IMG/VR virus record: IMGVR_UViG_2571042636_000001
Location: 1-25,417 of that record
Length of the DNA stretch: 25,417 nt
Origin: a virus
Lineage: Duplodnaviria; Heunggongvirae; Uroviricota; Caudoviricetes
Strand: one strand, 5' to 3'
A program made the translations under genes and the position numbers. Below, in pieces: positions 913 through 25,417 of the stretch. How positions within the stretch are numbered: the first letter of the stretch is position 1; each line of letters starts with the position of its first letter. The notes beneath the pieces were generated by a model. It saw only the letters and a list, made by a program, of their open reading frames with translations. It did no database searches and was not told the origin of the DNA.

Positions 913-2610
913 TCAGGCGATAATGTCGCCGTATTTTTCGCGCAGGCTCGTCGCCTGCAGGGCATCTGCGGCAAGTTCGCTGCTGTTCATTGGTGCGCCA
1001 GTGTTGCTATGGGTGTGGTTTGCTGTATGTGTGGCCAGTAATTGAATCAGATCCAGAATATCGATCAGCAACGTCAGCAGGTTAAGCCCTGACTTTTCCC
1101 GCGAGCCGCCGCGACCAATAAATACTGTCGGAGCGGTAAACTCCAGACCGCCGTCCGCTCTGCATGTTCTGCGGCCTCCCACGTTTTCGGTGAGGTCATG
1201 CTCAATGGTGGATATCGCCCCTTTGAGTTGAGTCAGCAAATCCTGCGCTACCATCTGGATATGCTCACCGGCTGCGATCGCATAATTGCCGGTAGTAAGG
1301 TGTTCTGTCTGGCCTGTCATCAGTTTGCTGGTACCAAGAACACTGGTTATGTCGTTTGCTTGGACTGTTGTTGTTCTGGTTGTTGTTGTGCGTTCTTCCT
1401 GATCGCTGTTAATGGTTCGCCTGGCTGAATGCTCCCTGATTTGCTGGTCGGTTTCTCTGTGCCAGCTTCCGTCAGTCGTGACGCGCTGAAACACTTCTGC
1501 GCGCTGTTGCTGCAGCTGTTCGCCGGGCTTTACATCAGGCAGGTTATGGCCTGCGGGTAAGATTTGCCTGATGACAGGTTTATCCGGTCGTCCTTCAATG
1601 TTGGATATTTCCACGATGGTGCCAGCCGGCGGGTAGGCAAAACATCCCGCCTCGCTACCAGCCATCGGGACGGGGAGTGGTACTGCCGGATAAACAGGCG
1701 TATCGCTTTTATCGTTGCCGTTCTCATCAAGCAGTTGCACATCGACGGCGTAGCGTGGGCGGAAACTGTCGGCAACATCGCCCAGGGTGACGGATTCCGT
1801 TGGGGCAATGACGCGCGCCAGCCTGGTATGTAGAGTACCGCTGGCCAGTTCCGGGAACTGTGTTTCCATCTGTCTGCGTAATGGTGATTTGGAAACAGGG
1901 CTACCCGTGGTGGTAAGGCGTTCCCATGTCAGGGTCATTTTCTCGTTGTTGAGGGCTACACGGGTAATGCGCCCGGCTGGAAGGTTCACGCCCGGTCGCA
2001 CAGTTTCCATAAACATGATGTCGATGCTGTTTCCGCCGCTTTGCCCGAGTGTGTACTGTTGCGGAATATCCGGCATGGTAATACTGGCAAACCGTGAATC
2101 CGATGCGCTTCCCACAAATACGGAACCGTCCGGCATTGGATGCCAGACGTAATCGCTGATACTGAATGCTCGCCCCAGCTGGCTAAGCAGTTGTGTTCCG
2201 CTGCCGCTGTGGGTGATGTAAGGTGTCGGAGTACCGACGTAATCCGCGTCTGGCGTGATGAAAACGATGCCGCTTTGTTTACCCAGATTATCGAGTACAT
2301 CCCGTAACGTTGGATGTTGCATGGAGCAGGGGAAATCAAAATCCAGCACGGCAGCTGCTTCACGGATAAAAAGGCGGCGTGAGCCATTTTCGGCGGGTTG
2401 ATCGCGTTCAATGTAGCCGGAGAAATAGCGCCATGCCTCACCATTACGGCCGAGATCAATTTGTATCATTGCGCCGGCAAGACTTTTTTTGGGTGGCAGA
2501 TTATTAACAGAAATGAAACCACGACCGGCAGCATTCAGGGTAAGAACAAGGCTGATATCGGCAATTTCCGCCAGCTCGCCATTAATCATACAGCGTTGGA
2601 TTAATTTCAT
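913..2610 (-). CDS. Putative baseplate central spike/hub protein (gpV / Mu gp45-like OB-fold region, histidine-rich C-terminal tip), 565 aa
   Basis: ATG at complement of 2608-2610 with a strong GAAGGAGGAAGG ribosome-binding site, overlapping the upstream stop (ATGA). The mid-region RYAVDVQLLDENG...PVYPAVPLPVPMAGSEAGCFAYPPAGTIVEISNIEGRPDKPVIRQILP fits the spike OB-fold pattern (G-x-V-x-V-x-F-x-x-G-D with flanking prolines). The C-terminus LLATHTANHTHSNTG carries an H-x-H type motif like metal-binding spike tips. Assignment is by motif recognition only. Confidence 0.45.
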   Translation of the reverse strand: MKLIQRCMINGELAEIADISLVLTLNAAGRGFISVNNLPPKKSLAGAMIQIDLGRNGEAWRYFSGYIERDQPAENGSRRLFIREAAAVLDFDFPCSMQHPTLRDVLDNLGKQSGIVFITPDADYVGTPTPYITHSGSGTQLLSQLGRAFSISDYVWHPMPDGSVFVGSASDSRFASITMPDIPQQYTLGQSGGNSIDIMFMETVRPGVNLPAGRITRVALNNEKMTLTWERLTTTGSPVSKSPLRRQMETQFPELASGTLHTRLARVIAPTESVTLGDVADSFRPRYAVDVQLLDENGNDKSDTPVYPAVPLPVPMAGSEAGCFAYPPAGTIVEISNIEGRPDKPVIRQILPAGHNLPDVKPGEQLQQQRAEVFQRVTTDGSWHRETDQQIREHSARRTINSDQEERTTTTRTTTVQANDITSVLGTSKLMTGQTEHLTTGNYAIAAGEHIQMVAQDLLTQLKGAISTIEHDLTENVGGRRTCRADGGLEFTAPTVFIGRGGSREKSGLNLLTLLIDILDLIQLLATHTANHTHSNTGAPMNSSELAADALQATSLREKYGDIIA

Positions 2611-3182
2611 GTTTTCCCTTCCTCCTTCACGCTCCCGATGCCAATCCAGTCCAGACCGGAGCCAATACCATCATTGATATTTTTCCAGAAAGTCTCCTGG
2701 GTATTCATTCCTTTATCCGGTACCTGCTCACTGCCGTTCTGTGTCTGCTGCTTTGCGATTGTTTTCTGTGAGCCACTGCGTGCCGATGCTTTTTCCGGCA
2801 CGCTTAATTTTTCCCTGAGGGTAAAGGTGACCTGCCAGTGCATCTTGCCCTGTTGTTCCGTGGCATCGATGCCGCCCGAAAAAACACCCTGTCGCATATT
2901 AATCGCCTTAGCAGTAGCGTTGGCGATGCGGTATGTTTTTTTGGCTCCGTTGCTTTCTGTTGCCTCCGCAAGCTGAAAAATACGGGTCAAAATAGCTTCA
3001 TCGTTAAAATCAATAATCCCCGACACGCGCAGCTCTTTGGCCTTGTTTCCCTGCTGGGCGCTCGTGGTGCTGGTTGATTGTCCGGACATATCTTTGTCCG
3101 GTAGTTGCATGGTGGCGCTGACGGTGATGTTGCGCAGCAGAATGGCTTCCCCGTCAAGCGCAAGGACAATCATCTGGGTCAT
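2607..3182 (-). CDS. Hypothetical protein, 191 aa, translationally coupled to the spike-like gene
   Basis: ATG at complement of 3180-3182 with an AAGGGA ribosome-binding site; its stop overlaps the downstream start. It sits in the late operon between the second tail fibre and the spike-like gene. No family recognised. Confidence 0.5.
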   Translation of the reverse strand: MTQMIVLALDGEAILLRNITVSATMQLPDKDMSGQSTSTTSAQQGNKAKELRVSGIIDFNDEAILTRIFQLAEATESNGAKKTYRIANATAKAINMRQGVFSGGIDATEQQGKMHWQVTFTLREKLSVPEKASARSGSQKTIAKQQTQNGSEQVPDKGMNTQETFWKNINDGIGSGLDWIGIGSVKEEGKT

Positions 3183-3876
3183 GTAGTGTTTCCCTTAGTG
3201 ATGAGAGATTATCGCCGACGAACAGCATCACAGCTGTAAAAACCCATTCGGGGTGTGGGATGTTTTTTTGTATCAGCACTGCGGCCTGGCTAAGGGCTCC
3301 CTTGTGGCAAAAGCGCCACACCGGGCAAAATTTTTGCCGGAGTGCGGCCTGCTGATCAGCGATTTCCTGTAAGGCTTTATCTCTCGCATTCATGAACTGA
3401 CGCAGTGATGATGACAATGTTTCCGGTGATGTGACGGCAGGAGTGGCTGCCTGTGCAATGGTTGCCGCCAGCGACATGCTGCGAGTGGTCTGTGTCGATA
3501 GCATTATCGGTTCCGGAAGTGATGTTACCGGTCTGGCGGGGATTTGCATTCTGCTGATGGCCAGTGAAAACTGGCTGGAGATCATGCGGGACATTCGTCC
3601 CACCTCTGGTAACGGAAATGCGCCTGAAAATTGCCTGGCGAGTGATAAAAACTCGCCAGCAGACGGGGCGCAAAATAACAGCGCCACAACGTCTTTTTCT
3701 GTGTTTTCTGTCAGATAAGGTAAAAGCGCGGATACAGCATTATCCGGGCTGAGGTAACGCCCTGATGGTGTAATGTTTCCCGTATTTTCTGACCATGGGT
3801 GGAGGCAAACCATTGAACAGGTAATAGCTATGGGGGCTGGTCGCAAAACAGAGCGTATCCATGTTGAATTGTTCAT
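3154..3876 (-). CDS. Hypothetical protein, 240 aa, immediately downstream of the second tail fibre
   Basis: ATG at complement of 3874-3876, preceded by AGGAAG 6 nt upstream and 24 nt after the fibre-2 stop. The protein is Ser/Thr/Ala/Pro-rich and lacks the usual tail-fibre-assembly C-terminal domain. No family recognised. Confidence 0.45.
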   Translation of the reverse strand: MNNSTWIRSVLRPAPIAITCSMVCLHPWSENTGNITPSGRYLSPDNAVSALLPYLTENTEKDVVALLFCAPSAGEFLSLARQFSGAFPLPEVGRMSRMISSQFSLAISRMQIPARPVTSLPEPIMLSTQTTRSMSLAATIAQAATPAVTSPETLSSSLRQFMNARDKALQEIADQQAALRQKFCPVWRFCHKGALSQAAVLIQKNIPHPEWVFTAVMLFVGDNLSSLRETLHDPDDCPCA

Positions 3877-3900
3877 TTGTTCTTCCTGTGTGTCCGGATA

Positions 3901-5457
3901 TTACCCCATTCCGTTCTGGCGTAATGTTGTTCCCGCAAATATTTTTGCCACCACAATACAGGGAAGAGGTCCATTTTTTGCGCTGGCTGTCTCCTCCAGT
4001 GTCGATGTATCCAGTGCATAGTAAGGTGTGTCTGGCATCACCACCCGTATTCTTACTGTTATTGTGCTCGCGGTAGCCGAGACAGAACCGACAAAATACT
4101 GAGCAGGAATGTATTGTCGGTTCTGATTCATGTAGAGATAACGTGGTTCGAGCAGAGCAGAAACAGCGATACCCACTCCTCCAACAGAGGATTTCCTGAC
4201 AGGATTAGATACATCCAGTTCCATAGCATAAATACGTGAACCATCCGGCAGACTTTTAAATGAATCCAGGTTGCTGTTCAGGGTACTTACAGCCACCTTT
4301 GGAATGACCGGATGAGCGCCATCAACAAATAAGTCTCCGGATTGTTGTCTGGACAGTAAATTGGTCGGCGCAGAAGAAATTTCGGGACCCTCTGGTGAAG
4401 TGGTGTCAAGAGATTCCATCTGTTTGCGAACAAAGGCCACACTGGCAATTTCATTACCTGCTGCATCATCCGGCGGTGTTGGTGTAGTCGGCTTTCCTGT
4501 GAATTCCGGGCTTTCCAGAGGAGCCCTTGTTTCAATAAGTTTCCTGAGTGCAACCTCGTTTACTTTCAGGTTTTCCCAGCCAGTCAGCCAGCCATTACCA
4601 GTGGACCAGTAACGGTTGTAATAAATATTGCCATTAATGCCGTAGAAAATAATGGCCTTTGCTGTATGTAACGGAAGTGGTGGGTTATGGTTTGCTTCCA
4701 GCCAGCGGATACTTATCACCCCCTGAAAAACAATGCCGGGAAGTACACCGTTTGCCCCATCCACATAATATTCTCCTGGCTCCACATATCTTGCCCATGC
4801 CAGAAAATCAGCTTCAGATTTAAACCTGACGGCCTCCCCCGGAATAAACCTGTGACCAAAACCAAATGCACCAGGTGTCGCCAGACGACCTTCAGAACGG
4901 TCACGGATACCATTTTGAGGTTCCATTGTGGCCGCTTTTTTTAGCCCGAGATTATCGCGTGATTCCTGTTGTGCCTCTTTGCCCTCATCAGCAATTTCTG
5001 ACAGGCGATTAGGTGCTTTCAGTGCTGTTTTCAGTTCCGGAGTGATATCCACCTGCCAGCTCTGCGGAGGGGCCGTGACTTGTGCAGACTGAGCAATGCC
5101 GCTGTATATAATCGTGAAATTACGAATAAGTGACTCGCCTGTTACTTTTTGTCGAACAGGCGTTTTTATTACGCCGCATAGTGTTCCGCTGGCCTGATGG
5201 ATGAGACAAATCCAGTCATAACTGAATGCACAGTCATCAGGAACAACCGCGCTACACACAATATTGTTCGGGCTTAACAGGCCGTAGGTCAGTTCATTCA
5301 CAGCATATGTAATTTTTTCTTCCGGAACGGTATTATCTTCGTGCGTTGGTTCCCGCTCCATCAGGGCAAAAATAATAGTGTCAGGGCGTGCAGGTAAATT
5401 ACTGGCTGTGCATTCAGCAACCCACTTTTCAAATGCTTTCGTCAACAATGCGCTCAT
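3901..5457 (-). CDS. Second tail fibre protein (shares the N-terminal domain of the first fibre, different distal part), 518 aa
   Basis: The first ~150 aa align by eye with fibre 1 (LPARPDTIIFAL vs GKPARPDTFVFAY; TYGLLSPNN vs QYGLLSPNA; FSYDWICLIHQASGTLCGVIKTPVRQK vs FEYNWIGLLNEESGVLCMIAHTPRQQK; WQVDIT vs WQIDFT). It has an internal collar-like motif (TGKPTTPTPPDDAAGNEIASVAFV), and the C-terminal half is unrelated to fibre 1. Confidence 0.7.
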   Translation of the reverse strand: MSALLTKAFEKWVAECTASNLPARPDTIIFALMEREPTHEDNTVPEEKITYAVNELTYGLLSPNNIVCSAVVPDDCAFSYDWICLIHQASGTLCGVIKTPVRQKVTGESLIRNFTIIYSGIAQSAQVTAPPQSWQVDITPELKTALKAPNRLSEIADEGKEAQQESRDNLGLKKAATMEPQNGIRDRSEGRLATPGAFGFGHRFIPGEAVRFKSEADFLAWARYVEPGEYYVDGANGVLPGIVFQGVISIRWLEANHNPPLPLHTAKAIIFYGINGNIYYNRYWSTGNGWLTGWENLKVNEVALRKLIETRAPLESPEFTGKPTTPTPPDDAAGNEIASVAFVRKQMESLDTTSPEGPEISSAPTNLLSRQQSGDLFVDGAHPVIPKVAVSTLNSNLDSFKSLPDGSRIYAMELDVSNPVRKSSVGGVGIAVSALLEPRYLYMNQNRQYIPAQYFVGSVSATASTITVRIRVVMPDTPYYALDTSTLEETASAKNGPLPCIVVAKIFAGTTLRQNGMG

Positions 5458-5463
5458 TACTTC

Positions 5464-6015
5464 TTAATTCTCGCTAATGTTCTGCGGTAATTCTGGCCAT
5501 ACAATCGCGGCATACGATGCTTTATCTGTAACTTGGCTGAATGTCATCTCCCGTAACGTTTTTGTATAAATACGGCAGGCTTTCAGTTTTTCCCTGTCTT
5601 CGTCGCTGATTAATCCCAGCAGCAGGTCTTTTTCCCATTCGCTGGTCATGATGCTGGCCTGTTTTAACAGTGCATCACGCTCATCTTCCGCTTTAAGTTT
5701 GTAGTCGAAGATAAAATTGCCATCGCGGTAAAACCAGTAACCAGGCACGGTAATACGGCGATTAGCGGTAATATCCGGAACTTCAATAACACTGGCGTTA
5801 CGGGGTTCAATGCCTGTCACATCCTTACCGACCCACACCACGCGCCCGTCCCCGGTGTAAACCATTTTTATTGTGTCGCTGGCAAAGTTCTTCTGTTCTT
5901 CATACCAGTTTTTGTCGTCTTCCGAAAAAAGCCAGGTGACACCATATTGTTTTGTCATATGATATTGTTCTGCGGTTTTCGGATTGCCCGCAGTAATATT
6001 TTTTAAATGCAACAT
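5464..6015 (-). CDS. Tail fibre assembly chaperone (P2 gpG-like), 183 aa
   Basis: ATG at complement of 6013-6015, starting 2 nt after the fibre-1 stop. Size and position are canonical for a fibre assembly chaperone directly 3' of a gpH-type fibre gene. Confidence 0.65.
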   Translation of the reverse strand: MLHLKNITAGNPKTAEQYHMTKQYGVTWLFSEDDKNWYEEQKNFASDTIKMVYTGDGRVVWVGKDVTGIEPRNASVIEVPDITANRRITVPGYWFYRDGNFIFDYKLKAEDERDALLKQASIMTSEWEKDLLLGLISDEDREKLKACRIYTKTLREMTFSQVTDKASYAAIVWPELPQNISEN

Positions 6016-6017
6016 TG

Positions 6018-7718
6018 TTAAACACTCGCCACGTTATACCAGGTGCCGTTAATCAGTTTCTGAAGCGGTCGGTAATACACGCCGCCGATGTTATCTGCCG
6101 AATTACTTCCGGTTTCCTGCACATTAATACCAGATAATCCATGGCCTGAAGGTGAGCGAAATGTCCAGGATATCTGGTTACCTCCCGGGTTGTAATACAT
6201 TTCGGAACCATAACGCACATCCTGCACGCCGCCTGTTTTGGTCTGGTAACGGGCATCAAAGTTTCCGTAGTCTGACGGTGTTACTCGCCCGGTAACGTTT
6301 ACAGGTTTATTACTCTGAATGCTGCCACTCTGAAAACGCAACACATGCACGCTATTGGCATAAACATCCAGCAGGCCATCACCATTCTGTTTCAGGCCGG
6401 TATCGTTATCCCCGAAAGCAATTGAGTTTCCGCCCAGCGCATTCTGAACGCCGATACCCAACGCACCGTTAACTTTCGAACCACCGCCAACAGATACTGC
6501 GTGTGACATGGAAACTTCACCCGTCCGCAAATTAATAGTGAACGGACGCAGGGGGCCAATATCGCCATTTTCCCCCTGGTTTTCCTGTGTTGGAATAAGG
6601 TGCAGGCACTCTTCCGAACGACGAAAAATCAGACCAAAGGCTTCGTTGAAAATCCTCAGCGCATTAACACCACGGATTTTCAGTTCCCCGCTCATGGTGT
6701 CGCCGTCACGCTCAACGGCGCCTTTTGCCTTATCCATTGCGGCTTTTACTGCCTTTGATGTGGCGGCGCGGTCTTCTGCGTCGCTGTCGGTGGAGTTGCT
6801 GTACTGCGCAAAGCCTTTCTCCTTCAGTGTTGCGTCCGGATGATGGCGGGATTTTTCGTGCTCTGCCAGTGCATTGCTTTGTTCTTCGTCGGGAGTCTCC
6901 GGGCGCAGGTCCTGTGGGCCGTCTCCTGTCATTTTTGCAAGTGGCGCGACAAAGTGTCGGAAGCCGTTACCGTCTGTATAAGACGCATGTTCCTGGCGGG
7001 CGCAGAACGTAAAAACGGTATTCCATTCGCCGGTAACAAATCCCTGCCAGCTTGCATCAATCCAGAGGGTATCCCCGACCGCAGCCGGCAGGCTGTAAGG
7101 TTCGCGCAGACTGACGCGCAGACCTCCCACATAACCCACGCCGGCGGCAACAGTAGCGGTACCGTCCTGATAGCTGACCTGAAAACCATCCCCCAGAAAA
7201 GCGGCTTCACCGTAGTGATCAAACGCCAGCAGCCGGCGGGCCTCATCCATTCCTGCAAGGCGTGCAGTGAAATCAATCTGCCAGACATCAGCGCTGACAT
7301 CGATATGCATTGCTACGGCTGCGCCGTCAAACTCCATGGAAAATGTGCGGATCAGGTTGTTTCCCTGCACGCCGTTCGCTGTTTTAATTTTTTGCTGACG
7401 AGGTGTGTGTGCAATCATGCAGAGCACGCCGCTTTCTTCGTTCAGCAGACCGATCCAGTTGTATTCGAAGTCGCCGACTGTCGTGTCCAGAATGATGGAA
7501 AACGCGGTCGCGTTCGGCGACAGGAGGCCGTACTGGGTGACCGGCGCACGATACTGAATCATGGATTCATCAGGGAGTATCTCATCGCGGGGGATCTCTG
7601 CGGATTCATCCTGTCCCGGAATATATGCAAAAACAAATGTATCCGGGCGCGCAGGTTTTCCACTGATGATTTGATTTGCGCACCAGTGTTCGTACTGTTC
7701 AGTAATAATCGTGCTCAT
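6018..7718 (-). CDS. Tail fibre protein (P2 gpH-like), 566 aa
   Basis: ATG at complement of 7716-7718, overlapping the upstream stop. It has motifs typical of enterobacterial P2-type fibres (HEKSRHHPDATLKEKGF, TSKAVKAAMD, NALGGNSIAFGDNDTGLKQNGDGLLDVYANS) and the C-terminal LINGTWYNVASV. Confidence 0.8.
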   Translation of the reverse strand: MSTIITEQYEHWCANQIISGKPARPDTFVFAYIPGQDESAEIPRDEILPDESMIQYRAPVTQYGLLSPNATAFSIILDTTVGDFEYNWIGLLNEESGVLCMIAHTPRQQKIKTANGVQGNNLIRTFSMEFDGAAVAMHIDVSADVWQIDFTARLAGMDEARRLLAFDHYGEAAFLGDGFQVSYQDGTATVAAGVGYVGGLRVSLREPYSLPAAVGDTLWIDASWQGFVTGEWNTVFTFCARQEHASYTDGNGFRHFVAPLAKMTGDGPQDLRPETPDEEQSNALAEHEKSRHHPDATLKEKGFAQYSNSTDSDAEDRAATSKAVKAAMDKAKGAVERDGDTMSGELKIRGVNALRIFNEAFGLIFRRSEECLHLIPTQENQGENGDIGPLRPFTINLRTGEVSMSHAVSVGGGSKVNGALGIGVQNALGGNSIAFGDNDTGLKQNGDGLLDVYANSVHVLRFQSGSIQSNKPVNVTGRVTPSDYGNFDARYQTKTGGVQDVRYGSEMYYNPGGNQISWTFRSPSGHGLSGINVQETGSNSADNIGGVYYRPLQKLINGTWYNVASV

Positions 7719-9531: not shown

Positions 9532-9874
9532 CAAGAGATACCGTAAAAGTCAGGGGTTCAAAAAAATCTTCGGTGTGGGCGCTAATCAGCAGGCGACCAG
9601 AAAGCGGGGTTTCTTCTGTCACACTGACCGTGCCAGGTGTGATGCGCTCATCATCTTCAATCAGCAGTGTCATCTGCATCATGATGTCGGCACGAAGCGT
9701 CGGGCTTTTTTCAGCCAGCAGGCGCGTTGCCAGTCCGCTCTCAATGATGGCGTGCTGGCAGTCCTGGGCAATACTTTCTCTGTTGTTGCATAACACCGGC
9801 TCACTGGCGCTGTTCAGCGTGAGATTGCGGCCGGTGATGAGCAAATCAATGTAAAGCGGTTTATCAGTATGCAT
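9524..9874 (-). CDS. Putative small baseplate protein (gpW/gp25-like by size and position), 116 aa
   Basis: ATG at complement of 9872-9874 overlaps the tape-measure stop. At 116 aa and directly 5' of the baseplate-J gene, it is where a gpW-type wedge protein is expected. Sequence similarity is weak. Confidence 0.35.
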   Translation of the reverse strand: MHTDKPLYIDLLITGRNLTLNSASEPVLCNNRESIAQDCQHAIIESGLATRLLAEKSPTLRADIMMQMTLLIEDDERITPGTVSVTEETPLSGRLLISAHTEDFFEPLTFTVSLDD

Positions 9875-11960
9875 GTAGCTCCATCCACTCGTTGAGGCGG
9901 GCAGGGGATGGATCCTGCACATTGACGTTGACCACGCGACGGGAGTTGTCGATTGTGGTCTGGTTTTCGCTGTTGTTCTGCATTTCTGCCGCAATGCCAC
10001 CAGGCCCCGCACTGATGGCTTTACCGCCGGTTAATACGGAGCCTTCGCCACTTCCTGTGCTTTCTGATGTGCCGATGTTAACGCCGGGGATCATGTTGAG
10101 TTTGTCCACAATCCAGCCCCATGAATCACTGAATGACTGTTTCACCAGTTCCCAGAGGTTACTGAAAATGTTCAGGATGCCGCCCGCGAGATCCTTCAGG
10201 GCATCCAGTGGTGAATGCGTGGAAAAATAGTTAACCAGTGCATTCCAGCCGTCCTGGATTGTGTTCCATGCATTGCCGAACCATGTCCCCATACTGCCGA
10301 CCATTTCAGCCACCCACTGAAAGGCGGCGGTATCCATCAGCGCGGCTTTAATCTCATCCCAGCGGGTGATCAGGAAATAAATGCCCACCCCCAGCGCAGC
10401 CAGTGCCAGGATGATTAATGTGATGGGGCTGAAAAGTAACTGTGTTGCAATAGCAGCTCCGCTGGTGACTGCGGTGTAGATTTTCATTGCTATGCCGGCG
10501 GCACCCAGTGCAACAGAATAAAGCCAGAGTCCGGCGCGCTGTAATTTCAGCAGCGCCAGCTGAATTTTTGCTTTGACGTTGTATGTTCCCATGGCAATGG
10601 ACATGGCCAGATACAGCGCCCTGACCGTTCGGGCAACTACAGTGAATGCCCACATGGTAGCCGTCAGTGTGCGTTTCAGCAGAATGAGAATCTTCAGCGG
10701 CGCAACGGCTGCCAGCCAGACCAGCCGCAGTCCTGTCCAGACAAACTTCGCCACACCCACCATAATGTTGACAACAGCACCCACTGCGGCAATGCCCAGC
10801 AGGGCGGCAGACAGTAAACCAATGGCCCGTGTGATATTGGGATACAGACGTAACCAGGCAACAAAGGATTTACCGCCTTCGTTGCTTTTCTGGATAAACG
10901 GGTACAGAACAGGCAACAACTGCGTGCCAATTTCAATGCGAATGCCGTTAATAATTGCAGCGGCCTGTTCCCATGGATCGGCCATGGCTTGTGCCATTTC
11001 GACAGCCTTATCCATACCTTTAATATTGCCCAGCGTGGCGATATTCTTTTCAAGTCCGCCAATGTCCGCATTGAGTAATTTAATCATGGCCACAGCTTCA
11101 TCGGAGCCAAAGGCGCTTTTCAGCAAATCGGAATCAGCCACTTTTGACAGATCACCAAATTTGCCCCTGATAAGTTTCATGATCTCGACAACACTTTTCA
11201 TCGTGCCGTCTTTATTCACGAAATTAAGCCCCAGCTTTTTCTGGGCGCTGCCTACTGCGGCAAGAAATGCTTTGTACTTTGTCCCGGCCTCGCTGCCACT
11301 CATGGTGGCCTGCAGTTGTCCCAGCACAGCGAACTGTTCAGCCGCATCAATACCGGCCGCTTTTGCACTGGCACCCAGCGTGGTGAACGCCGCTGACATG
11401 TTATCGCCGGTTGTTTTAAACATTTGCACGGCGGTGGCGGTTTGCCCGGCGACCTGCTCCACCCATTTGCTTTTTCCCATGGCATCAGCCTGGTCTTTAA
11501 AGATGCCGTACATGGTGCCCATGTAGGCGGTAATGGTCTGGCTGCTGGATTTGGTTGCTGCTGCCACCGTTGCTGATGCGGTGGTGAAGCGGGACAGCTC
11601 ATCGTCAGTTAACCCGGCAATGGCTGACTGGATGTCGTAAGAAGCACGCACAAAATCCTGCGCAGCCCCGCCGTATTCCATAGTGAAATCAACGGCGGCG
11701 CGGCTGAGTTTACGCAATCCGGACTCTGCGACGCCCAGTGATTTCACCTCACCGAGCGCCCTGTCCATTTCAATGGCTGGCATCAGTGCCCCCTGAATGG
11801 CTGCACCTACTCCCCAGAGCGCAGCGCCTCCGGTAGCAATGTCCCGAAAGGCTCCCCGACTTGTTGCAGCAAATCCCTGAACCTGTCGCCCGGCTGCACG
11901 CAACGGCCTTGTCAGGCGGTCTGTCAGTTCAAGAAGTAATTCAAGGCGCTGTTGTGACAT
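9864..11960 (-). CDS. Tail tape measure protein, 698 aa
   Basis: Long ORF right after the chaperone frameshift pair. It is Ala/Gly-rich and helical in character with central hydrophobic segments, typical of tape measure proteins, and its ATG overlaps the stop of the frameshifted chaperone frame (TAATG). Confidence 0.8.
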   Translation of the reverse strand: MSQQRLELLLELTDRLTRPLRAAGRQVQGFAATSRGAFRDIATGGAALWGVGAAIQGALMPAIEMDRALGEVKSLGVAESGLRKLSRAAVDFTMEYGGAAQDFVRASYDIQSAIAGLTDDELSRFTTASATVAAATKSSSQTITAYMGTMYGIFKDQADAMGKSKWVEQVAGQTATAVQMFKTTGDNMSAAFTTLGASAKAAGIDAAEQFAVLGQLQATMSGSEAGTKYKAFLAAVGSAQKKLGLNFVNKDGTMKSVVEIMKLIRGKFGDLSKVADSDLLKSAFGSDEAVAMIKLLNADIGGLEKNIATLGNIKGMDKAVEMAQAMADPWEQAAAIINGIRIEIGTQLLPVLYPFIQKSNEGGKSFVAWLRLYPNITRAIGLLSAALLGIAAVGAVVNIMVGVAKFVWTGLRLVWLAAVAPLKILILLKRTLTATMWAFTVVARTVRALYLAMSIAMGTYNVKAKIQLALLKLQRAGLWLYSVALGAAGIAMKIYTAVTSGAAIATQLLFSPITLIILALAALGVGIYFLITRWDEIKAALMDTAAFQWVAEMVGSMGTWFGNAWNTIQDGWNALVNYFSTHSPLDALKDLAGGILNIFSNLWELVKQSFSDSWGWIVDKLNMIPGVNIGTSESTGSGEGSVLTGGKAISAGPGGIAAEMQNNSENQTTIDNSRRVVNVNVQDPSPARLNEWMELHAY

Positions 11961-12441
11961 TACGATCCCTTAAAAGCACGGATAATGCCGTTATTGACGG
12001 CGATGCTCATATTTTCCCAGTAGTGGTTATCCAGCCAGACGGCGGCAGCCAGTGACTGCGGCGAGTCATCCTCGCCGGGCAGCCAGTGGCGGCGCAGAAT
12101 CAGCATCCGGGTAAGGTCATTGCGATCAATGGCCCCCAGATGGCTTTTTATTTTTTTACGGTGATTTCCACTTCCGGCACAAACTCGTTATTCACGGCTG
12201 TTGCCAGGCTGGCCGGCATTCCTGGTTTTTCCAGCAACTGGTTCAGCAGATCGCGGTGCTCTTTAATCACGATACGGCGCAGGTAGTTTTTCAGCGGTGC
12301 AATTTTATTGTCCGGCATGAAGTCGTTCTGCAGGTCGTTGTAGTCTTTCACCGTCGGGATAAACGTCAGTTCATGCTCGCCGACCTGTAAAGTGATGGCG
12401 TTCTCTGCGGTGGTTTGGGGGTTTTTATCGTTCATCATCAT
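11960..12441 (-). CDS. Frameshift-extended tail assembly chaperone (gpE+E' type, about 159 aa) made by programmed -1 slippage
   Basis: The -1 frame entered at the heptamer A AAA AAA (complement of 12151-12157) stays open for 63 further codons (IKSHLGAIDRNDLTRMLILRRHWLPGEDDSPQSLAAAVWLDNHYWENMSIAVNNGIIRAFKGS) and stops at complement of 11960-11962, 1 nt overlapping the tape-measure ATG. Translated by hand from the sequence. Confidence 0.55.
12148..12441 (-). CDS. Tail assembly chaperone (P2 gpE-like), 97 aa
   Basis: ATG at complement of 12439-12441. Small acidic protein immediately 5' of the tape measure gene; it ends ...VEITVKK-stop on a slippery A7 run. Confidence 0.7.
   Translation of the reverse strand: MMMNDKNPQTTAENAITLQVGEHELTFIPTVKDYNDLQNDFMPDNKIAPLKNYLRRIVIKEHRDLLNQLLEKPGMPASLATAVNNEFVPEVEITVKK
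12151..12157 (-). other. Slippery heptamer A_AAA_AAA (programmed -1 ribosomal frameshift site)
   Basis: Run of 7 T on the plus strand (7 A in mRNA sense) in the last two sense codons of the chaperone ORF. The chaperone/tape-measure frameshift arrangement is conserved across tailed phages. Confidence 0.55.
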
Positions 12442-12505
12442 GTCCTGTTAATGTCAAGAATAAGAGGGCTTAATAAGCCTGCAGGAAGGCTTATTAAGCG
12501 TAAAA

Positions 12506-12847
12506 TCAGCGCACACCGTCGTGCTCAAGGCTGAAATGATTGCCATCTGCGCGGTTTTTAAAACGACCGCCCCATGAGCCGCCGAGGGATTCCCAGTACT
12601 CGCCCAGTTCGCGGTAAGCCTCTGTGCGGGTCTGGTATTCACCGTTAATAAACAGATTAAAATCCACCGCCAGTCGCTGGCAGTGCAGACTGTTGGTGAT
12701 GCCTGATCCCTTTTGTGCGTTGAGTTTTGCCTGCTCTGGCGTGCGGTACGCCTCACCGAACGTCAGGCCATAACCGCGCTGATGGGCAAACTGGATGAGT
12801 TTTCCGATCATGACGGTAAATTGTTGTTGCTTATCGGAGAGTTTCAT
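12506..12847 (-). CDS. Peptidase M15-family endolysin (L-alanyl-D-glutamate peptidase-like), 113 aa
   Basis: ATG at complement of 12845-12847 with an AAGGAG ribosome-binding site. It has the metal-ligand pattern H-x6-D (SLHCQRLAVDF) and a C-terminal DGNHFSLEH, characteristic of M15 cell-wall peptidases. Confidence 0.7.
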   Translation of the reverse strand: MKLSDKQQQFTVMIGKLIQFAHQRGYGLTFGEAYRTPEQAKLNAQKGSGITNSLHCQRLAVDFNLFINGEYQTRTEAYRELGEYWESLGGSWGGRFKNRADGNHFSLEHDGVR

Positions 12848-12956: not shown

Positions 12957-13253
12957 TTACTCCTCTTTGTTCTCTTTTTCGTCCAGCTTCCGGCGCATGT
13001 GGCGCAGGAAGATTTCCACAATCTGGTAACCGGCAACGCCCATTGCGGTACCTGCGCCGGCAATGGCCAGTGGGTCAAGATTCGGGTAGCGAACCAGCAG
13101 GGCGGCGGCAGAAACACCCAGCGCGCTCCCCAGCAGGGTTCGGCCCACAAACAACCGCAACGTAATCGGTTCTGCGCCAGCCAGCACCCGACTTGCGGCA
13201 GCGATTCCGCCCAGAATGCCCAGGGTGATGATGGTGCGTTCATGCTCCTGCAT
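12957..13253 (-). CDS. Putative holin, 98 aa, three predicted transmembrane segments and a charged C-terminus
   Basis: ATG at complement of 13251-13253. Three hydrophobic stretches (IITLGILGGIAAASRVLAG, LRLFVGRTLLGSALGVSAAALLV, LAIAGAGTAMGVAGYQIVEIFL) are followed by the tail RHMRRKLDEKENKEE, and the gene lies just upstream of the M15 peptidase. Confidence 0.55.
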   Translation of the reverse strand: MQEHERTIITLGILGGIAAASRVLAGAEPITLRLFVGRTLLGSALGVSAAALLVRYPNLDPLAIAGAGTAMGVAGYQIVEIFLRHMRRKLDEKENKEE

Positions 13254-13256
13254 GGT

Positions 13257-13712
13257 TCACCCCATCAGCCCGCGCACGTCGTTCTCTGAGAGAACGGGCA
13301 CGCCGTTGATACGTACAAAGTCAGGGCTTGCCACCACGTACTTGATTTTGTGTGTGGTCAGATCCGCGCTCTCGGTGTCAATGCTTAACAGGTTCGAAAG
13401 CATCAGCTCACACCCGAAGACTTCAACGCGGATTTCTTCGGTGCCTGTGTTGGCGTAGAACACAAAATCCATTGATGGCAGGTCACGCCACGATCCCGCC
13501 TGAGCGGCTGCTTCCCCGAGCTGGTTAAAACTGCGGGTACTCATTTCGATTTCACCTTCGGCACTGACGGGACCGCGCAGTTTGCCGTCAGGGATGCCAC
13601 GGGTTTTGGCCACGGCGCTTTCGTCGCTGATATCCAGCGAAATGTTTTTTACGCGGATATCCGTTCCGCCAACATAAACATCAAAGGCCATGCCGTTAAT
13701 GCGGGTTGTCAT
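13257..13712 (-). CDS. Tail tube protein, 151 aa
   Basis: ATG at complement of 13710-13712 with a GGAGGAG ribosome-binding site, overlapping the sheath stop (ATGA). Size and position directly 3' of the sheath gene are canonical. Confidence 0.7.
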   Translation of the reverse strand: MTTRINGMAFDVYVGGTDIRVKNISLDISDESAVAKTRGIPDGKLRGPVSAEGEIEMSTRSFNQLGEAAAQAGSWRDLPSMDFVFYANTGTEEIRVEVFGCELMLSNLLSIDTESADLTTHKIKYVVASPDFVRINGVPVLSENDVRGLMG

Positions 13713-23815: not shown

Positions 23816-24775
23816 TTACTCCTTGTCCATTGCGTACAGCCCATTAACCAGAGCAAACTGTGGCACCCCGTCCGCGATGAAAGTCGCATTAACTCCGCAG
23901 GCTTCGCGGATAGCGGGTGCCACAATCTCCGCCCCGCCACCGACAACCATCACCCGCCCGTAACCCGAAAAACCCGCCAGCGCGCGGATCACGCGTTGTT
24001 TCAGTGTCTCTTCCTTTTCACGAATAACCGCCATCAGGCTGTCGTAATGCGCGCCATTGTGGATGTGCTGGCGCAGCCAGGCTTCATCATGGCGATGTTC
24101 AATAATGGTATTAGCGATATGGTGACTGGTGCGCATACCGTTGGTGGCCATCACCGACAGCACGGCATCGGCCATCAGGGAAACGCCTACGTGTGGATCG
24201 CAAAACACCTGGCTGATACCTGCCAGTTGCCCCTGAACCTTTGCCACATCCAGCGTGGTTCCGCCTAAATCAACAATAAGCAGGGATTCAAACGGACTCA
24301 TATCAGCCAGTGCTTTAAAGCCAGCCGGAATGGATTCAGGCATAACCCGCACGTTACGGATAGTGAATGCCTCACCGTTCTGGTACTCCACCGGGCGCAT
24401 AACGTTCGCTTTTTTGCGGTTGATGTTGGCCATATCCGGCTGTGCGTTTGTATCGAAATACTCGCTCAGTGGCAGGGTGACAACCACATCCACCTCCTGT
24501 GGTGTGATGCCTGATTTGACCAGCGCGTGGTGAATGGCGATTACATTCACATCGCTGTACTGGTATTGCGTGTCGGTCGTCTGGATAAAGCGATCGCTGA
24601 CCGGATCAAAACCATAGCGCACGCCATCAAGCATGTAGTTCGCAGGCTGCGAGCCACCGAACGGCGCAGACCATTCCGACTTGAAGCTGTTCGGGCTGAT
24701 GGCGTTGCGGCATTCGCCGTTCTCAGTCCATGCCAGCTTGATGTTGGTGGAGCCGTCGTCGATACAAATTTTCAT
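23816..24775 (-). CDS. parM: ParM (StbA) actin-like segregation ATPase, 319 aa
   Basis: ATG at complement of 24773-24775 with an AAGGAAAA ribosome-binding site. The N-terminus MKICIDDGSTNIKLAW, and ISPNSFK, YSDVNVIAIHHAL, VMPESIPAG, LIVDLGGTTLD, FSGY..VMVVGGGAEI and LVNGLY match the actin-fold phosphate and adenosine motifs of plasmid R1 ParM. Confidence 0.9.
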   Translation of the reverse strand: MKICIDDGSTNIKLAWTENGECRNAISPNSFKSEWSAPFGGSQPANYMLDGVRYGFDPVSDRFIQTTDTQYQYSDVNVIAIHHALVKSGITPQEVDVVVTLPLSEYFDTNAQPDMANINRKKANVMRPVEYQNGEAFTIRNVRVMPESIPAGFKALADMSPFESLLIVDLGGTTLDVAKVQGQLAGISQVFCDPHVGVSLMADAVLSVMATNGMRTSHHIANTIIEHRHDEAWLRQHIHNGAHYDSLMAVIREKEETLKQRVIRALAGFSGYGRVMVVGGGAEIVAPAIREACGVNATFIADGVPQFALVNGLYAMDKE

Positions 24776-24806
24776 GTCGCTTTTCCTTATGTTGGTTAAT
24801 TAACCG

Positions 24807-24917
24807 TTTACGGGATTTTTAAATCCCGCTTTCGCCTGTTTTGTGCGCGCTTCATATATCGCGGCGCGTTTTTTGCTCATTTACGGGATTTGTGAATCCC
24901 GTTTTTGTCTGTTTTTT
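24807..24917. repeat. parC-like centromere/promoter region: two ~39-bp direct repeats, each with a CGGGATTT..AAATCCCG inverted-repeat core
   Basis: Repeat 1 is about 24807-24845 (tttacgggatttttaaatcccgctttcgcctgttttgtg) and repeat 2 about 24879-24917 (tttacgggatttgtgaatcccgtttttgtctgttttttg). They flank a TATAT-containing spacer immediately upstream of parM. Confidence 0.65.
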
Positions 24918-25417
24918 GTTTCCACTGGTCAGGCCACCCCGCAGCAGGTCTGCTTTGCGGCGGGCGCGTTCAGTGGTTTCACTGATTCTCTGTGCGTGCT
25001 CTGCGTCGCGGATGGCGCGCAGCATGTCAGAAAGCACGGTAACGGGTGTTTTCATGGTGTTCTGGTCCTGCTGAAGAGCGGATGCCAGGCGTGCGGCGGC
25101 TTCAGGGGCTGATGCCCCCAGCTGTGCCAGATAGCTGGCGACCGGGTTATGGCGGATCTCCGTGCTGCTTACGCCATGATTACGGCTCAGGCGCTGCCAG
25201 AGCTGCGTGATTCGGCTGTCCGGGCGGGTATCCGGTTTGCGTACAATTTCAAATCCCTGCGGTGCAATGATGCTGCCGTCAACGTACAGACTGCCGCCCC
25301 GTAACAGGTGCTGCATCTGCTGTTCACCGATATGCAGGCCGAGAGATTCAGCAGACTCCCGCCATTCTTTAGCGAGTAATTCGTGGTTATCAGGCAAAGG
25401 CCGCTGCTGTTTGCGGC
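24852..25417 (-). CDS. Hypothetical protein, C-terminal part (ORF open to the right edge); possibly replication-associated
   Basis: The reading frame stays open upstream of the TTG shown as start in the ORF track, so the 5' end is outside the window. Its 3' end overlaps the parC repeats. No family confidently recognised. Confidence 0.35.
   Translation of the reverse strand, partial: RKQQRPLPDNHELLAKEWRESAESLGLHIGEQQMQHLLRGGSLYVDGSIIAPQGFEIVRKPDTRPDSRITQLWQRLSRNHGVSSTEIRHNPVASYLAQLGASAPEAAARLASALQQDQNTMKTPVTVLSDMLRAIRDAEHAQRISETTERARRKADLLRGGLTSGNKKQTKTGFTNPVNEQKTRRDI

Follow-up and report, generated by a model that had tools for sequence, protein, structure and literature searches.

Does the tail-assembly chaperone gene of this phage yield one protein or two and, if two, what carries the reading from one frame into the other? 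In long-tailed dsDNA phages, as with lambda G/GT, the tape-measure gene is directly preceded by two overlapping ORFs, and this tail-chaperone frameshift arrangement is conserved despite low sequence similarity (Levin 1993; Xu, Hendrix and Duda 2004, 2013, 2014; summarized in PMC5009743). The DNA analysed here, called the window throughout, is the stretch of 25,417 nucleotides that makes up positions 1 to 25,417 of the Caudoviricetes virus record IMGVR_UViG_2571042636_000001. An initial annotation had proposed that a run of seven A's at the end of a putative chaperone ORF allows a -1 frameshift into an extension ending at the start of the tape measure gene. Our analysis indicates that the prophage concerned, an HP1/P2-like myovirus (Peduoviridae), very probably uses programmed -1 ribosomal frameshifting to express its tail-assembly chaperone gene.

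Gene context and the frame junction

The two genes flanking the junction, named from the sequence alone in the initial annotation, were identified as such by profile matches, and the elements between them are as follows.

12148..12441, minus strand: tail-assembly chaperone ORF, PF10963 (Phage_TAC_10), E 1e-24; analogue of lambda G and P2 E
9864..11960, minus strand: tail tape measure gene, 698 aa, PhageMin_Tail E 7.5e-29, phrog_28 E 1.9e-91
12151..12157, minus strand: slippery heptamer A_AAA_AAA, in phase with the chaperone frame (GT-A AAA AAA)
12148..12150, minus strand: 0-frame stop TAA, candidate 'shifty stop', directly abutting the heptamer
11960..12151, minus strand: -1 extension or 'T' domain by translation and DUF6890 match, 63 codons IKSHLGAIDR...IIRAFKGS plus TAA
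11960..12441, minus strand: putative 160-aa fusion product (chaperone plus DUF6890 domain), with two Pfam matches

The genes run from sheath through tube (13257..13712), holin, endolysin, chaperone, -1 extension and tape measure to baseplate, an order that follows the P2 layout FI-FII-E-E+E'-T and places the chaperone/extension pair directly upstream of the tape measure gene and downstream of the tube gene. As read from the sequence, the chaperone ORF has 97 codons, its C-terminus is ...EITVKK, and its last codons are GTA AAA AAA TAA with the A7 run at 12157..12151, just as first described. Three tandem ATGs (12441, 12438, and 12435) open the gene; the spacing of an AGGA motif favours the third (12435), and the chaperone in database clusters is 95 aa long. 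The short product may be 95 aa (third ATG) instead of 97 aa (first ATG). A search by sequence for homologues of solved structure gave just chance-level helical matches to ATP synthase b.

The -1 frame is indeed open for the 63 codons claimed for it. The new codons run from 12151 to 11963 and are followed by a TAA at 11962..11960, the last A of which is also the A of the tape-measure ATG at 11960 (TAATG), and the junction reads KK-IKSHLGAIDR...AFKGS. In the fused 160-aa sequence, Pfam places PF10963 at residues 16-97 and PF21830 at residues 116-159. In the proposed mechanism, the majority of ribosomes would read GTA AAA AAA and terminate at TAA, giving the chaperone of ~95-97 aa, and a minority would slip back by one base on A_AAA_AAA, with tRNA-Lys able to re-pair perfectly in the -1 frame. 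The shifted ribosomes would then read ATA AAA AGC..., continue for 63 further codons and stop on the TAA overlapping the tape-measure ATG, giving the 160-aa fusion.

Conservation of the heptamer among relatives

The initial annotation regarded the arrangement as a conserved one and named loss of the -1 frame in related phages as evidence against it. Every one of the 62 distinct relatives keeps the -1 frame and an in-phase A_AAA_AAN, as do named phages from seven or more Peduoviridae genera, and the arrangement is conserved across phages of Escherichia, Haemophilus, Vibrio, Aeromonas, and Pseudomonas. By tblastn, 76 phage records matched the query, most of them as a two-piece, two-frame match and 52 covering at least 80% of it; a scan of genome contigs contributed just two loci. 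The heptamer occupies the same position in the distinct relatives, always in phase, as A_AAA_AAA in 20 and as A_AAA_AAC in 42, and enterobacterial lineages carry one or other of these two forms. Among named phages, HP1, K139, phiO18P, and YenM324 have A6C, yong1 and ACA1 have A7, and Pseudomonas phage phi3 has A_AAA_AAG. At the window locus the open -1 frame reaches back to 37 nt ahead of the 0-frame stop, and in some relatives that frame opens just 10 nt before the stop, so that the shift is pinned to the heptamer. Among the 20 genes of the window, the chaperone alone has its last two sense codons in an in-phase X_XXY_YYZ heptamer.

The A7, A6C, and A6G heptamers are all shift-prone by experiment or naturally used in E. 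coli (PMC4066793, PMC5009743). Frameshifting on AAAAAAA in E. coli amounts to 0.41% on the bare heptamer, rising to 0.82% when the IS911 stimulators are present and to 24.8% when the IS3 pseudoknot is (PMC4066793 supplement). A_AAA_AAA is only moderately shifty in E. coli absent a strong stimulator (0.4-0.8%), which counts against the frameshift reading.

Candidate stimulators and the adjacent stop codon

A stimulatory structure had been suggested at about 12100-12150. Folding predicts one there.

12102..12145, minus strand: predicted RNA stem-loop with an inner CAUUG....CAAUG hairpin, candidate frameshift stimulator

The predicted stem-loop (12145..12102) begins 5 nt past the heptamer and its core helix 9 nt past. 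Over 71 nt the MFE is -23.7 kcal/mol (z -2.17, a value reached by 3 of 200 shuffles), and the predicted fold is retained in a 171-nt context. Covariation was not significant in the close clade, where a single compensatory pair was found and 149 of 500 shuffles reached the observed score. Of 12 close variants, 4 do not preserve one of the stem-loop pairs, and a synonymous CGG to AGG change breaks a stem pair in several close variants, which fold differently. Family-wide, the 50 nt past the stop have a mean fold z of -1.44 vs about -0.1 in three control windows; a single consensus structure for all lineages was ruled out, the helices differing between sub-lineages. A search of Rfam over 11900..12500 returned no family and no frameshift element at E up to 1. 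An SD-like stimulator (GGAG, GAGG, AGGA or similar) 6-17 nt upstream of the heptamer is absent in the window and in 54 of the 62 relatives.

The 0-frame stop adjoins the heptamer in all 62 distinct close relatives, representing ~30 lineages, whether it is TAA, TAG or TGA, and this adjacency is also found in HP1, K139, phiO18P, YenM324, and yong1, not in ACA1 or phi3. Adjacency requires the -1 frame codon ATA or CTA (or CTG then A), and ATA and CTA are rare codons in E. coli. The slip would probably be aided by the stop directly after the heptamer together with the stem-loop 5-9 nt downstream. One may tentatively entertain the possibility that the site is a 'shifty stop' device, where slippage competes with the release factor, and not a plain tandem slip. 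Were it so, termination kinetics, and hence host physiology, would set the chaperone:fusion ratio, and adjacency would have been kept in ~30 lineages at the cost of ATA/CTA codons in the -1 frame. The weak A7 and A6C heptamers would then depend on the stop, and phi3, with its strong A_AAA_AAG, would have dispensed with adjacency. The strict adjacency of heptamer and stop makes this family a small, clean natural system for the competition between termination and -1 slippage.

Ribosome or RNA polymerase

The same fusion could arise if RNA polymerase stutters on the A7 run (template T7) and adds one A, as the resulting A8 mRNA would encode the same VKK-IKSH... sequence. The site in the window is a homopolymer, and E. 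coli genes contain fewer AAAAAAA than expected in each of the three frames, for which transcriptional slippage or indel mutation may be responsible (PMC4066793). The protein product is identical by either route, so mass spectrometry of the junction peptide is unable to separate the two mechanisms. The heptamer is A6C in 42 of the 62 relatives, as in the four named phages listed above, and A6G in phi3; such six-A heptamers preserve the X_XXY_YYZ re-pairing logic, and heptamers with just six A's favour ribosomal over transcriptional slippage. The phase of the run is constant and a stop adjoins it, both of which are irrelevant to a polymerase, and the RNA just 3' of the site is enriched in local structure. 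For E. coli RNA polymerase to slip appreciably, a run of about 8-9 or more is usually required. We infer that the slip is ribosomal; transcriptional slippage is improbable as the explanation of the fusion, though on A7 it may contribute.

The extension as a coding domain without its own start

The extension matches DUF6890 (PF21830) at E 4.7e-23 over the whole profile (1-44/44), and also phrog_7050. Among relatives its entropy by codon position is 0.69/0.56/1.42, and the median dN/dS over 584 pairs is 0.20; the other two frames of the region contain 3.4 and 6.0 stops per sequence. This pattern of substitution indicates purifying selection on the extension, confined to the -1 frame.

The extension could in principle be a gene of its own, with no recoding, expressed from the internal ATG at extension codon 16 of the window as a standalone 48-aa DUF6890 protein (MLILRRHW...). 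This is how existing records present it: the PGAP annotation of the closest E. coli prophage has two separate genes, a feature-by-feature check of it finding no joined CDS, and RefSeq lists a standalone 'DUF6890 family protein', with the same three product names under 56 of 56 matching complete E. coli genomes. Against this, 30 of the 62 distinct relatives have no ATG, GTG or TTG ahead of the conserved LRRH core. Conservation also reaches from the shift site past the internal ATG; conserved residues upstream of the window's internal ATG are A-I at 7-8 and N at 11. The GACCTTACCCGG upstream of the internal ATG is, by eye, without an obvious Shine-Dalgarno match. Among 1.84 billion proteins searched, the 43 representatives matching the extension are all fragments of 28-67 aa whose matches begin at query positions scattered from 6 to 34, as gene callers placed the starts, and none carries the extension within a longer in-frame protein. 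The in-phase slippery heptamer conserved at the frame junction likewise speaks against two independent genes, which we regard as very unlikely. The lone fused protein encountered, P0002 (Salmonella Montevideo), was rejected, as it arose by a deletion that brought together the LRR motifs of chaperone and extension.

A coincidental A7 run and 63-codon -1 ORF, with the 97-aa protein alone of importance, has next to no probability: A7 runs are not over-represented in the window (12 observed vs 8.1 expected) and the -1 frame is open for at least 63 codons at 9.6% of in-gene positions, but this reading is effectively refuted by the Pfam match, by selection in the -1 frame only, and by an arrangement kept among the phages of all five host genera named above. 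Judged from sequence comparison, the combination is far beyond chance, given the protein-family match and the conservation in relatives. With a programmed ribosomal frameshift as the preferred reading, DUF6890 is the frameshift-encoded C-terminal 'T' domain of Phage_TAC_10 tail chaperones.

Relation to characterized frameshift systems

The locus repeats, in another protein family, the arrangement known from lambda G/GT and P2 E/E+E'. The window shares with the G/GT-type class the position, an overlapping -1 ORF without a start, a conserved in-phase heptamer, and a chaperone family. Like the window, P2 (NC_001895) belongs to Peduoviridae and has the order sheath, tube, chaperone, -1 extension, tape measure; in both, the short product is ~91-97 aa and the fusion ~142-160 aa, the end of the extension overlaps the tape-measure start, and the extension has a Pfam family of its own (Phage_P2_GpE in P2, DUF6890 in the window). 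In contrast to P2, which has Phage_TAC_7 plus Phage_P2_GpE, the window has Phage_TAC_10 plus DUF6890; the P2 heptamer T_TTT_TTG lies six codons before the E stop, whereas A_AAA_AAA of the window lies directly before the stop; and the window has lysis genes between tube and chaperone. Membership in the P2 gpE/gpE+E' family was rejected (hhalign probability 0.15, different Pfam families), and the window pair is instead a functional analogue.

HP1 resembles the window more closely, with the same lysis genes between tube and chaperone and a chaperone end ITVKN, A_AAA_AAC TAA, corresponding to ITVKK, A_AAA_AAA TAA in the window. Like the HP1 orf26-type pair, the window carries the two domains in separate frames that meet at the conserved ...[TE]VK[KN] heptamer. 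True homologues, with PF10963 and DUF6890 and the same site, are HP1 orf26, HP2, K139, phiO18P, ESSI-2, YenM324, and ACA1; K139 differs in that tblastn aligned none of the query's chaperone portion to its site-bearing orf30 (192 aa).

Lambda differs from the window in being a siphovirus and in its heptamer, G_GGA_AAG. In lambda it has been demonstrated that G binds the tape measure and T binds the tube protein, with a ratio of ~30:1 (PMC5009743). By extension from lambda, the two domains at the window locus would take G- and T-type roles. The shared N-terminal domain would coat the tape-measure protein and the rare C-terminal domain would recruit the tail tube protein, as in lambda G/GT and P2 E/E+E'; by the same analogy with lambda and P2, tail assembly would need a fixed low fusion:chaperone ratio and neither protein would stay in the virion.

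Other bacterial -1 signals include A_AAA_AAC in IS1, A_AAA_AAA/G in the IS3 family, and A_AAA_AAG in dnaX (PMC5009743, PMC4066793). These share with the window heptamers of lysine codons read by the single E. coli tRNA-Lys, and a downstream hairpin is their usual stimulator. The window differs from them in having neither an SD-like upstream element nor an Rfam match, its structure being a predicted one.

Implications for annotation

The biology of such loci being well established, the value of the present finding lies mainly in annotation. A corrected annotation assigns a function to DUF6890 / phrog_7050, labelled 'unknown function', and a simple pipeline rule, A_AAA_AAN at the ...VK[KN] end of PF10963 genes, would capture it. 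A literature search returned no mention of DUF6890 or of an ESSI-2 frameshift, and most phage records, among them those of HP1, ESSI-2, phi3, and phiO18P, leave the extension unannotated or give it as a separate small ORF. In GenBank OR438928 (Pseudoalteromonas phage ACA1), the homologous pair gp36/gp36a is annotated as a joined CDS, a 'projected programmed frameshift analogous to that in phage P2'.

Frameshift site and its reading frames

The initial annotation had described a slip of -1 on an A7 run at the end of the chaperone ORF, and this description was exact, since the -1 reading with its junction peptide, as well as the TAATG overlap with the tape measure start, was reproduced in the sequence. 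The features of the site, whose neighbouring genes are all on the minus strand, are as follows.

12441..12148, minus strand: chaperone ORF (MMMNDKNPQ...VPEVEITVKK; last codons GTA AAA AAA TAA)
12157..12151, minus strand: A7 run
12151..11963, then TAA at 11962..11960, minus strand: -1 extension of 63 new codons, KK-IKSHLGAIDRNDLTRMLILRRHWLPGEDDSPQSLAAAVWLDNHYWENMSIAVNNGIIRAFKGS
12145..12102, minus strand: predicted stem-loop, beginning 5-9 nt 3' of the heptamer
9864..11960, minus strand: 698-aa ORF (tape measure), the first base of its ATG being the last A of the extension's TAA

The short ORF is a Phage_TAC_10 tail-assembly chaperone (Pfam, E 1e-24, full profile), and the gene downstream of the chaperone pair is a tape measure (PhageMin_Tail; phrog_28). 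Taken alone, an A7 run with an open -1 frame is statistically unremarkable: A7 runs are about as frequent in the window as by chance (12 observed vs 8.1 expected), and the -1 frame is open for at least 63 codons at 9.6% of in-gene positions. An X_XXY_YYZ heptamer in phase at the last two sense codons is found in the chaperone gene only (1/20 genes). This gene starts with three tandem ATG codons (12435..12441, minus strand), with an AGGA motif that is just 2 nt away from the first and some 8 nt away from the third; the third-ATG start (95 aa) is used by many database clusters, and the true start is probably 12435.

Conservation of the heptamer and of the extension

The 104 related loci collected comprise 62 distinct sequences, or about 30 lineages at 90% identity. 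The initial annotation had made its reading depend on conservation of the -1 frame in related phages, and this frame is conserved, with the heptamer in phase over the final two codons of the chaperone, in all 62 relatives (A_AAA_AAA in 20, A_AAA_AAC in 42); in some, a -1 frame stop just upstream leaves a 10-nt space for the shift, heptamer included. Among named phages, A_AAA_AAC is found in HP1, K139, phiO18P and YenM324, A_AAA_AAA in Vibrio phage yong1 and Pseudoalteromonas phage ACA1, and A_AAA_AAG in Pseudomonas phage phi3. Thus the heptamer varies yet its X_XXY_YYZ logic is kept, and the majority of versions have just six A's.

The extension itself is under purifying selection as protein. 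In the conceptual fusion product, residues 116-159 align to all of Pfam DUF6890 (E 4.7e-23), with a further match to phrog_7050. Entropy in the -1 frame of the 62 relatives is 1.42 at the third codon position vs 0.69 at the first and 0.56 at the second, the median pairwise dN/dS of the extension is 0.20, and the other two frames contain 3.4 and 6.0 stops per sequence. In 30 of the 62 relatives, no ATG, GTG or TTG occurs from the chaperone stop up to the conserved LRRH core, and in E. coli prophages the conserved residues A-I and N lie upstream of the ATG taken as start by RefSeq. Scanning 1.84 billion representative proteins in full with HMMER returned 43 relatives, all of them fragments of 28-67 aa with matches starting at query positions 6 to 34, and none (0/43) within a longer in-frame protein. 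The extension is therefore a real protein domain without a start of its own, reachable solely via the chaperone frame. DUF6890 is identified here as the frameshift-encoded domain.

Two relatives deserve separate mention. In Vibrio phage K139 (locus L117, 232..810), an A_AAA_AAC TAA site and the DUF6890 extension are present, and the upstream ORF, orf30 (192 aa, ending ...GITITLKN), was not matched in tblastn by the chaperone portion of the query; this suggests a swapped N-terminal domain in front of a retained recoding site and extension. P0002, a 96-aa protein of Salmonella enterica Montevideo, is an in-frame chaperone-DUF6890 fusion (...KNYLRR|HWLPGE...). CTGCGCCG (Leu-Arg-Arg) is an 8-nt direct repeat with one copy in the chaperone frame and another in the -1 extension (window near 12277 and 12092, minus strand), and the fusion appears to have arisen through deletion between these copies, probably in a decayed prophage.

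Slippage mechanism and candidate stimulators

Because the heptamer logic is kept with mostly six A's, ribosomal slippage is favoured over RNA-polymerase stuttering as the common mechanism. Polymerase slippage may contribute at the A7 version of the window, where it would give the same protein as ribosomal frameshifting, so that detection of junction peptides does not discriminate between the two. In E. coli, frameshifting on AAAAAAA is 0.41% without stimulators, 0.82% with IS911 elements and 24.8% with the IS3 pseudoknot (PMC4066793), and A_AAA_AAC is less shifty, yet is the natural IS1 site (PMC4066793; PMC5009743).

As to stimulators of ribosomal slippage, a 0-frame stop (TAA, TAG or TGA) lies directly 3' of the heptamer in 62/62 relatives, which depends entirely on the first -1 codon being ATA, CTA, or CTG with A after it; the synonymous ATT, ATC, CTC and CTT, which would abolish the stop, occur there in none of the 62. 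E. coli uses ATA and CTA rarely. This adjacency looks like selection for a 'shifty stop' (Weiss et al. 1987, as cited in PMC5009743), and through it termination kinetics may enter into the mechanism. Unlike the window and all 62 relatives, ACA1 and phi3 have a non-adjacent stop.

The downstream structure suggested by the initial annotation was recovered by RNA folding as the stem-loop at 12145..12102 (MFE -23.7 kcal/mol, z -2.17; fold kept in 171-nt context), but not by covariation, since the close clade has one compensatory pair only, which is not significant. In the set of 62 relatives, the first 50 nt 3' of the stop fold more stably than shuffles (mean z -1.44; 48% below -1.5), whereas three control windows of the same loci gave mean z between -0.06 and -0.17. 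The predicted helices vary from lineage to lineage, and no Rfam family matched the site region. The structure is likely but unproven. An SD-like upstream stimulator was looked for and is absent.

Relation to known frameshifts and annotation

The site is an instance of the conserved tail-chaperone frameshift, shown initially in lambda (G/GT) and subsequently in P2 (E/E+E'); PMC5009743 gives a summary, and the P2 frameshift is annotated in the P2 record. The layout of the window site is close to that of P2, but P2 has Phage_TAC_7 + Phage_P2_GpE where the window has Phage_TAC_10 + DUF6890, and hhalign detected no sequence relation between the pairs (probability 0.15). Given this layout with unrelated proteins, the site is P2 E/E+E'-like in its working and outside the P2 protein family; the pair is a genuine HP1 orf26-type one. 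For another pair of this type, that of ACA1, the GenBank record already contains a joined CDS with a 'projected programmed frameshift analogous to that in phage P2', citing PF10963.

Elsewhere, the extension is without annotation (HP1, ESSI-2, YenM324) or a separate small ORF (phi3, phiO18P, yong1). RefSeq (PGAP) gives the chaperone and a 'DUF6890 family protein' as two separate products in 56/56 matching E. coli genomes; in the closest E. coli prophage (L001, 3795..3941) the latter is a 48-aa standalone CDS from an internal ATG, and this one prophage, inspected feature by feature, has no joined CDS. The separate product is a recurring annotation artefact. With chaperone and tape-measure families confirmed, DUF6890 in the -1 frame and the heptamer kept in 62/62 relatives, both the initial observation and its frameshift interpretation are correct on the sequence evidence. 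The site is a previously unannotated example of a well-known kind of recoding signal.

Gene neighbourhood

Upstream of the chaperone are M15 endolysin, holin, HP1-Orf24-type tail tube and sheath genes, and downstream of the site are DUF2590, baseplate J and tail fibre genes; the remaining genes include portal, terminase, scaffold, capsid and head-tail connector. As in HP1, holin (12957..13253, minus strand) and M15 endolysin (12506..12847, minus strand) lie between tail tube and chaperone, whereas the spanin gene found between endolysin and chaperone in HP1, ESSI-2, YenM324 and phiO18P would have no room in the window. A 100-aa GTG ORF (12454..12756, minus strand) is embedded in the endolysin gene. 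The 64-nt gap from endolysin stop to chaperone ATG contains a terminator-like hairpin of 13 bp, GCTTAATAAGCC...GGCTTATTAAGC, with CCTCTTATTC after it (12468..12499, minus strand). Its effect could be attenuation of transcripts entering the chaperone and tape-measure genes, or termination of a lysis transcript.

A fibre-assembly gene (5464..6015) is flanked by two genes for tail fibres (6018..7718, 566 aa; 3901..5457, 518 aa), of which the second has its own tail-fibre N-terminus, and two ORFs without known function follow (3154..3876 and 2607..3182), all on the minus strand; 2607..7718 may represent a host-range module that is duplicated or alternative. Beyond the structural genes, 23816..25397 (minus strand) holds a gene for a partition-like protein (phrog_691) and, running across the window end, the C-terminal portion of a replication-origin nicking protein (phrog_91/6857), and therefore the window extends into the replication/maintenance module of the prophage.
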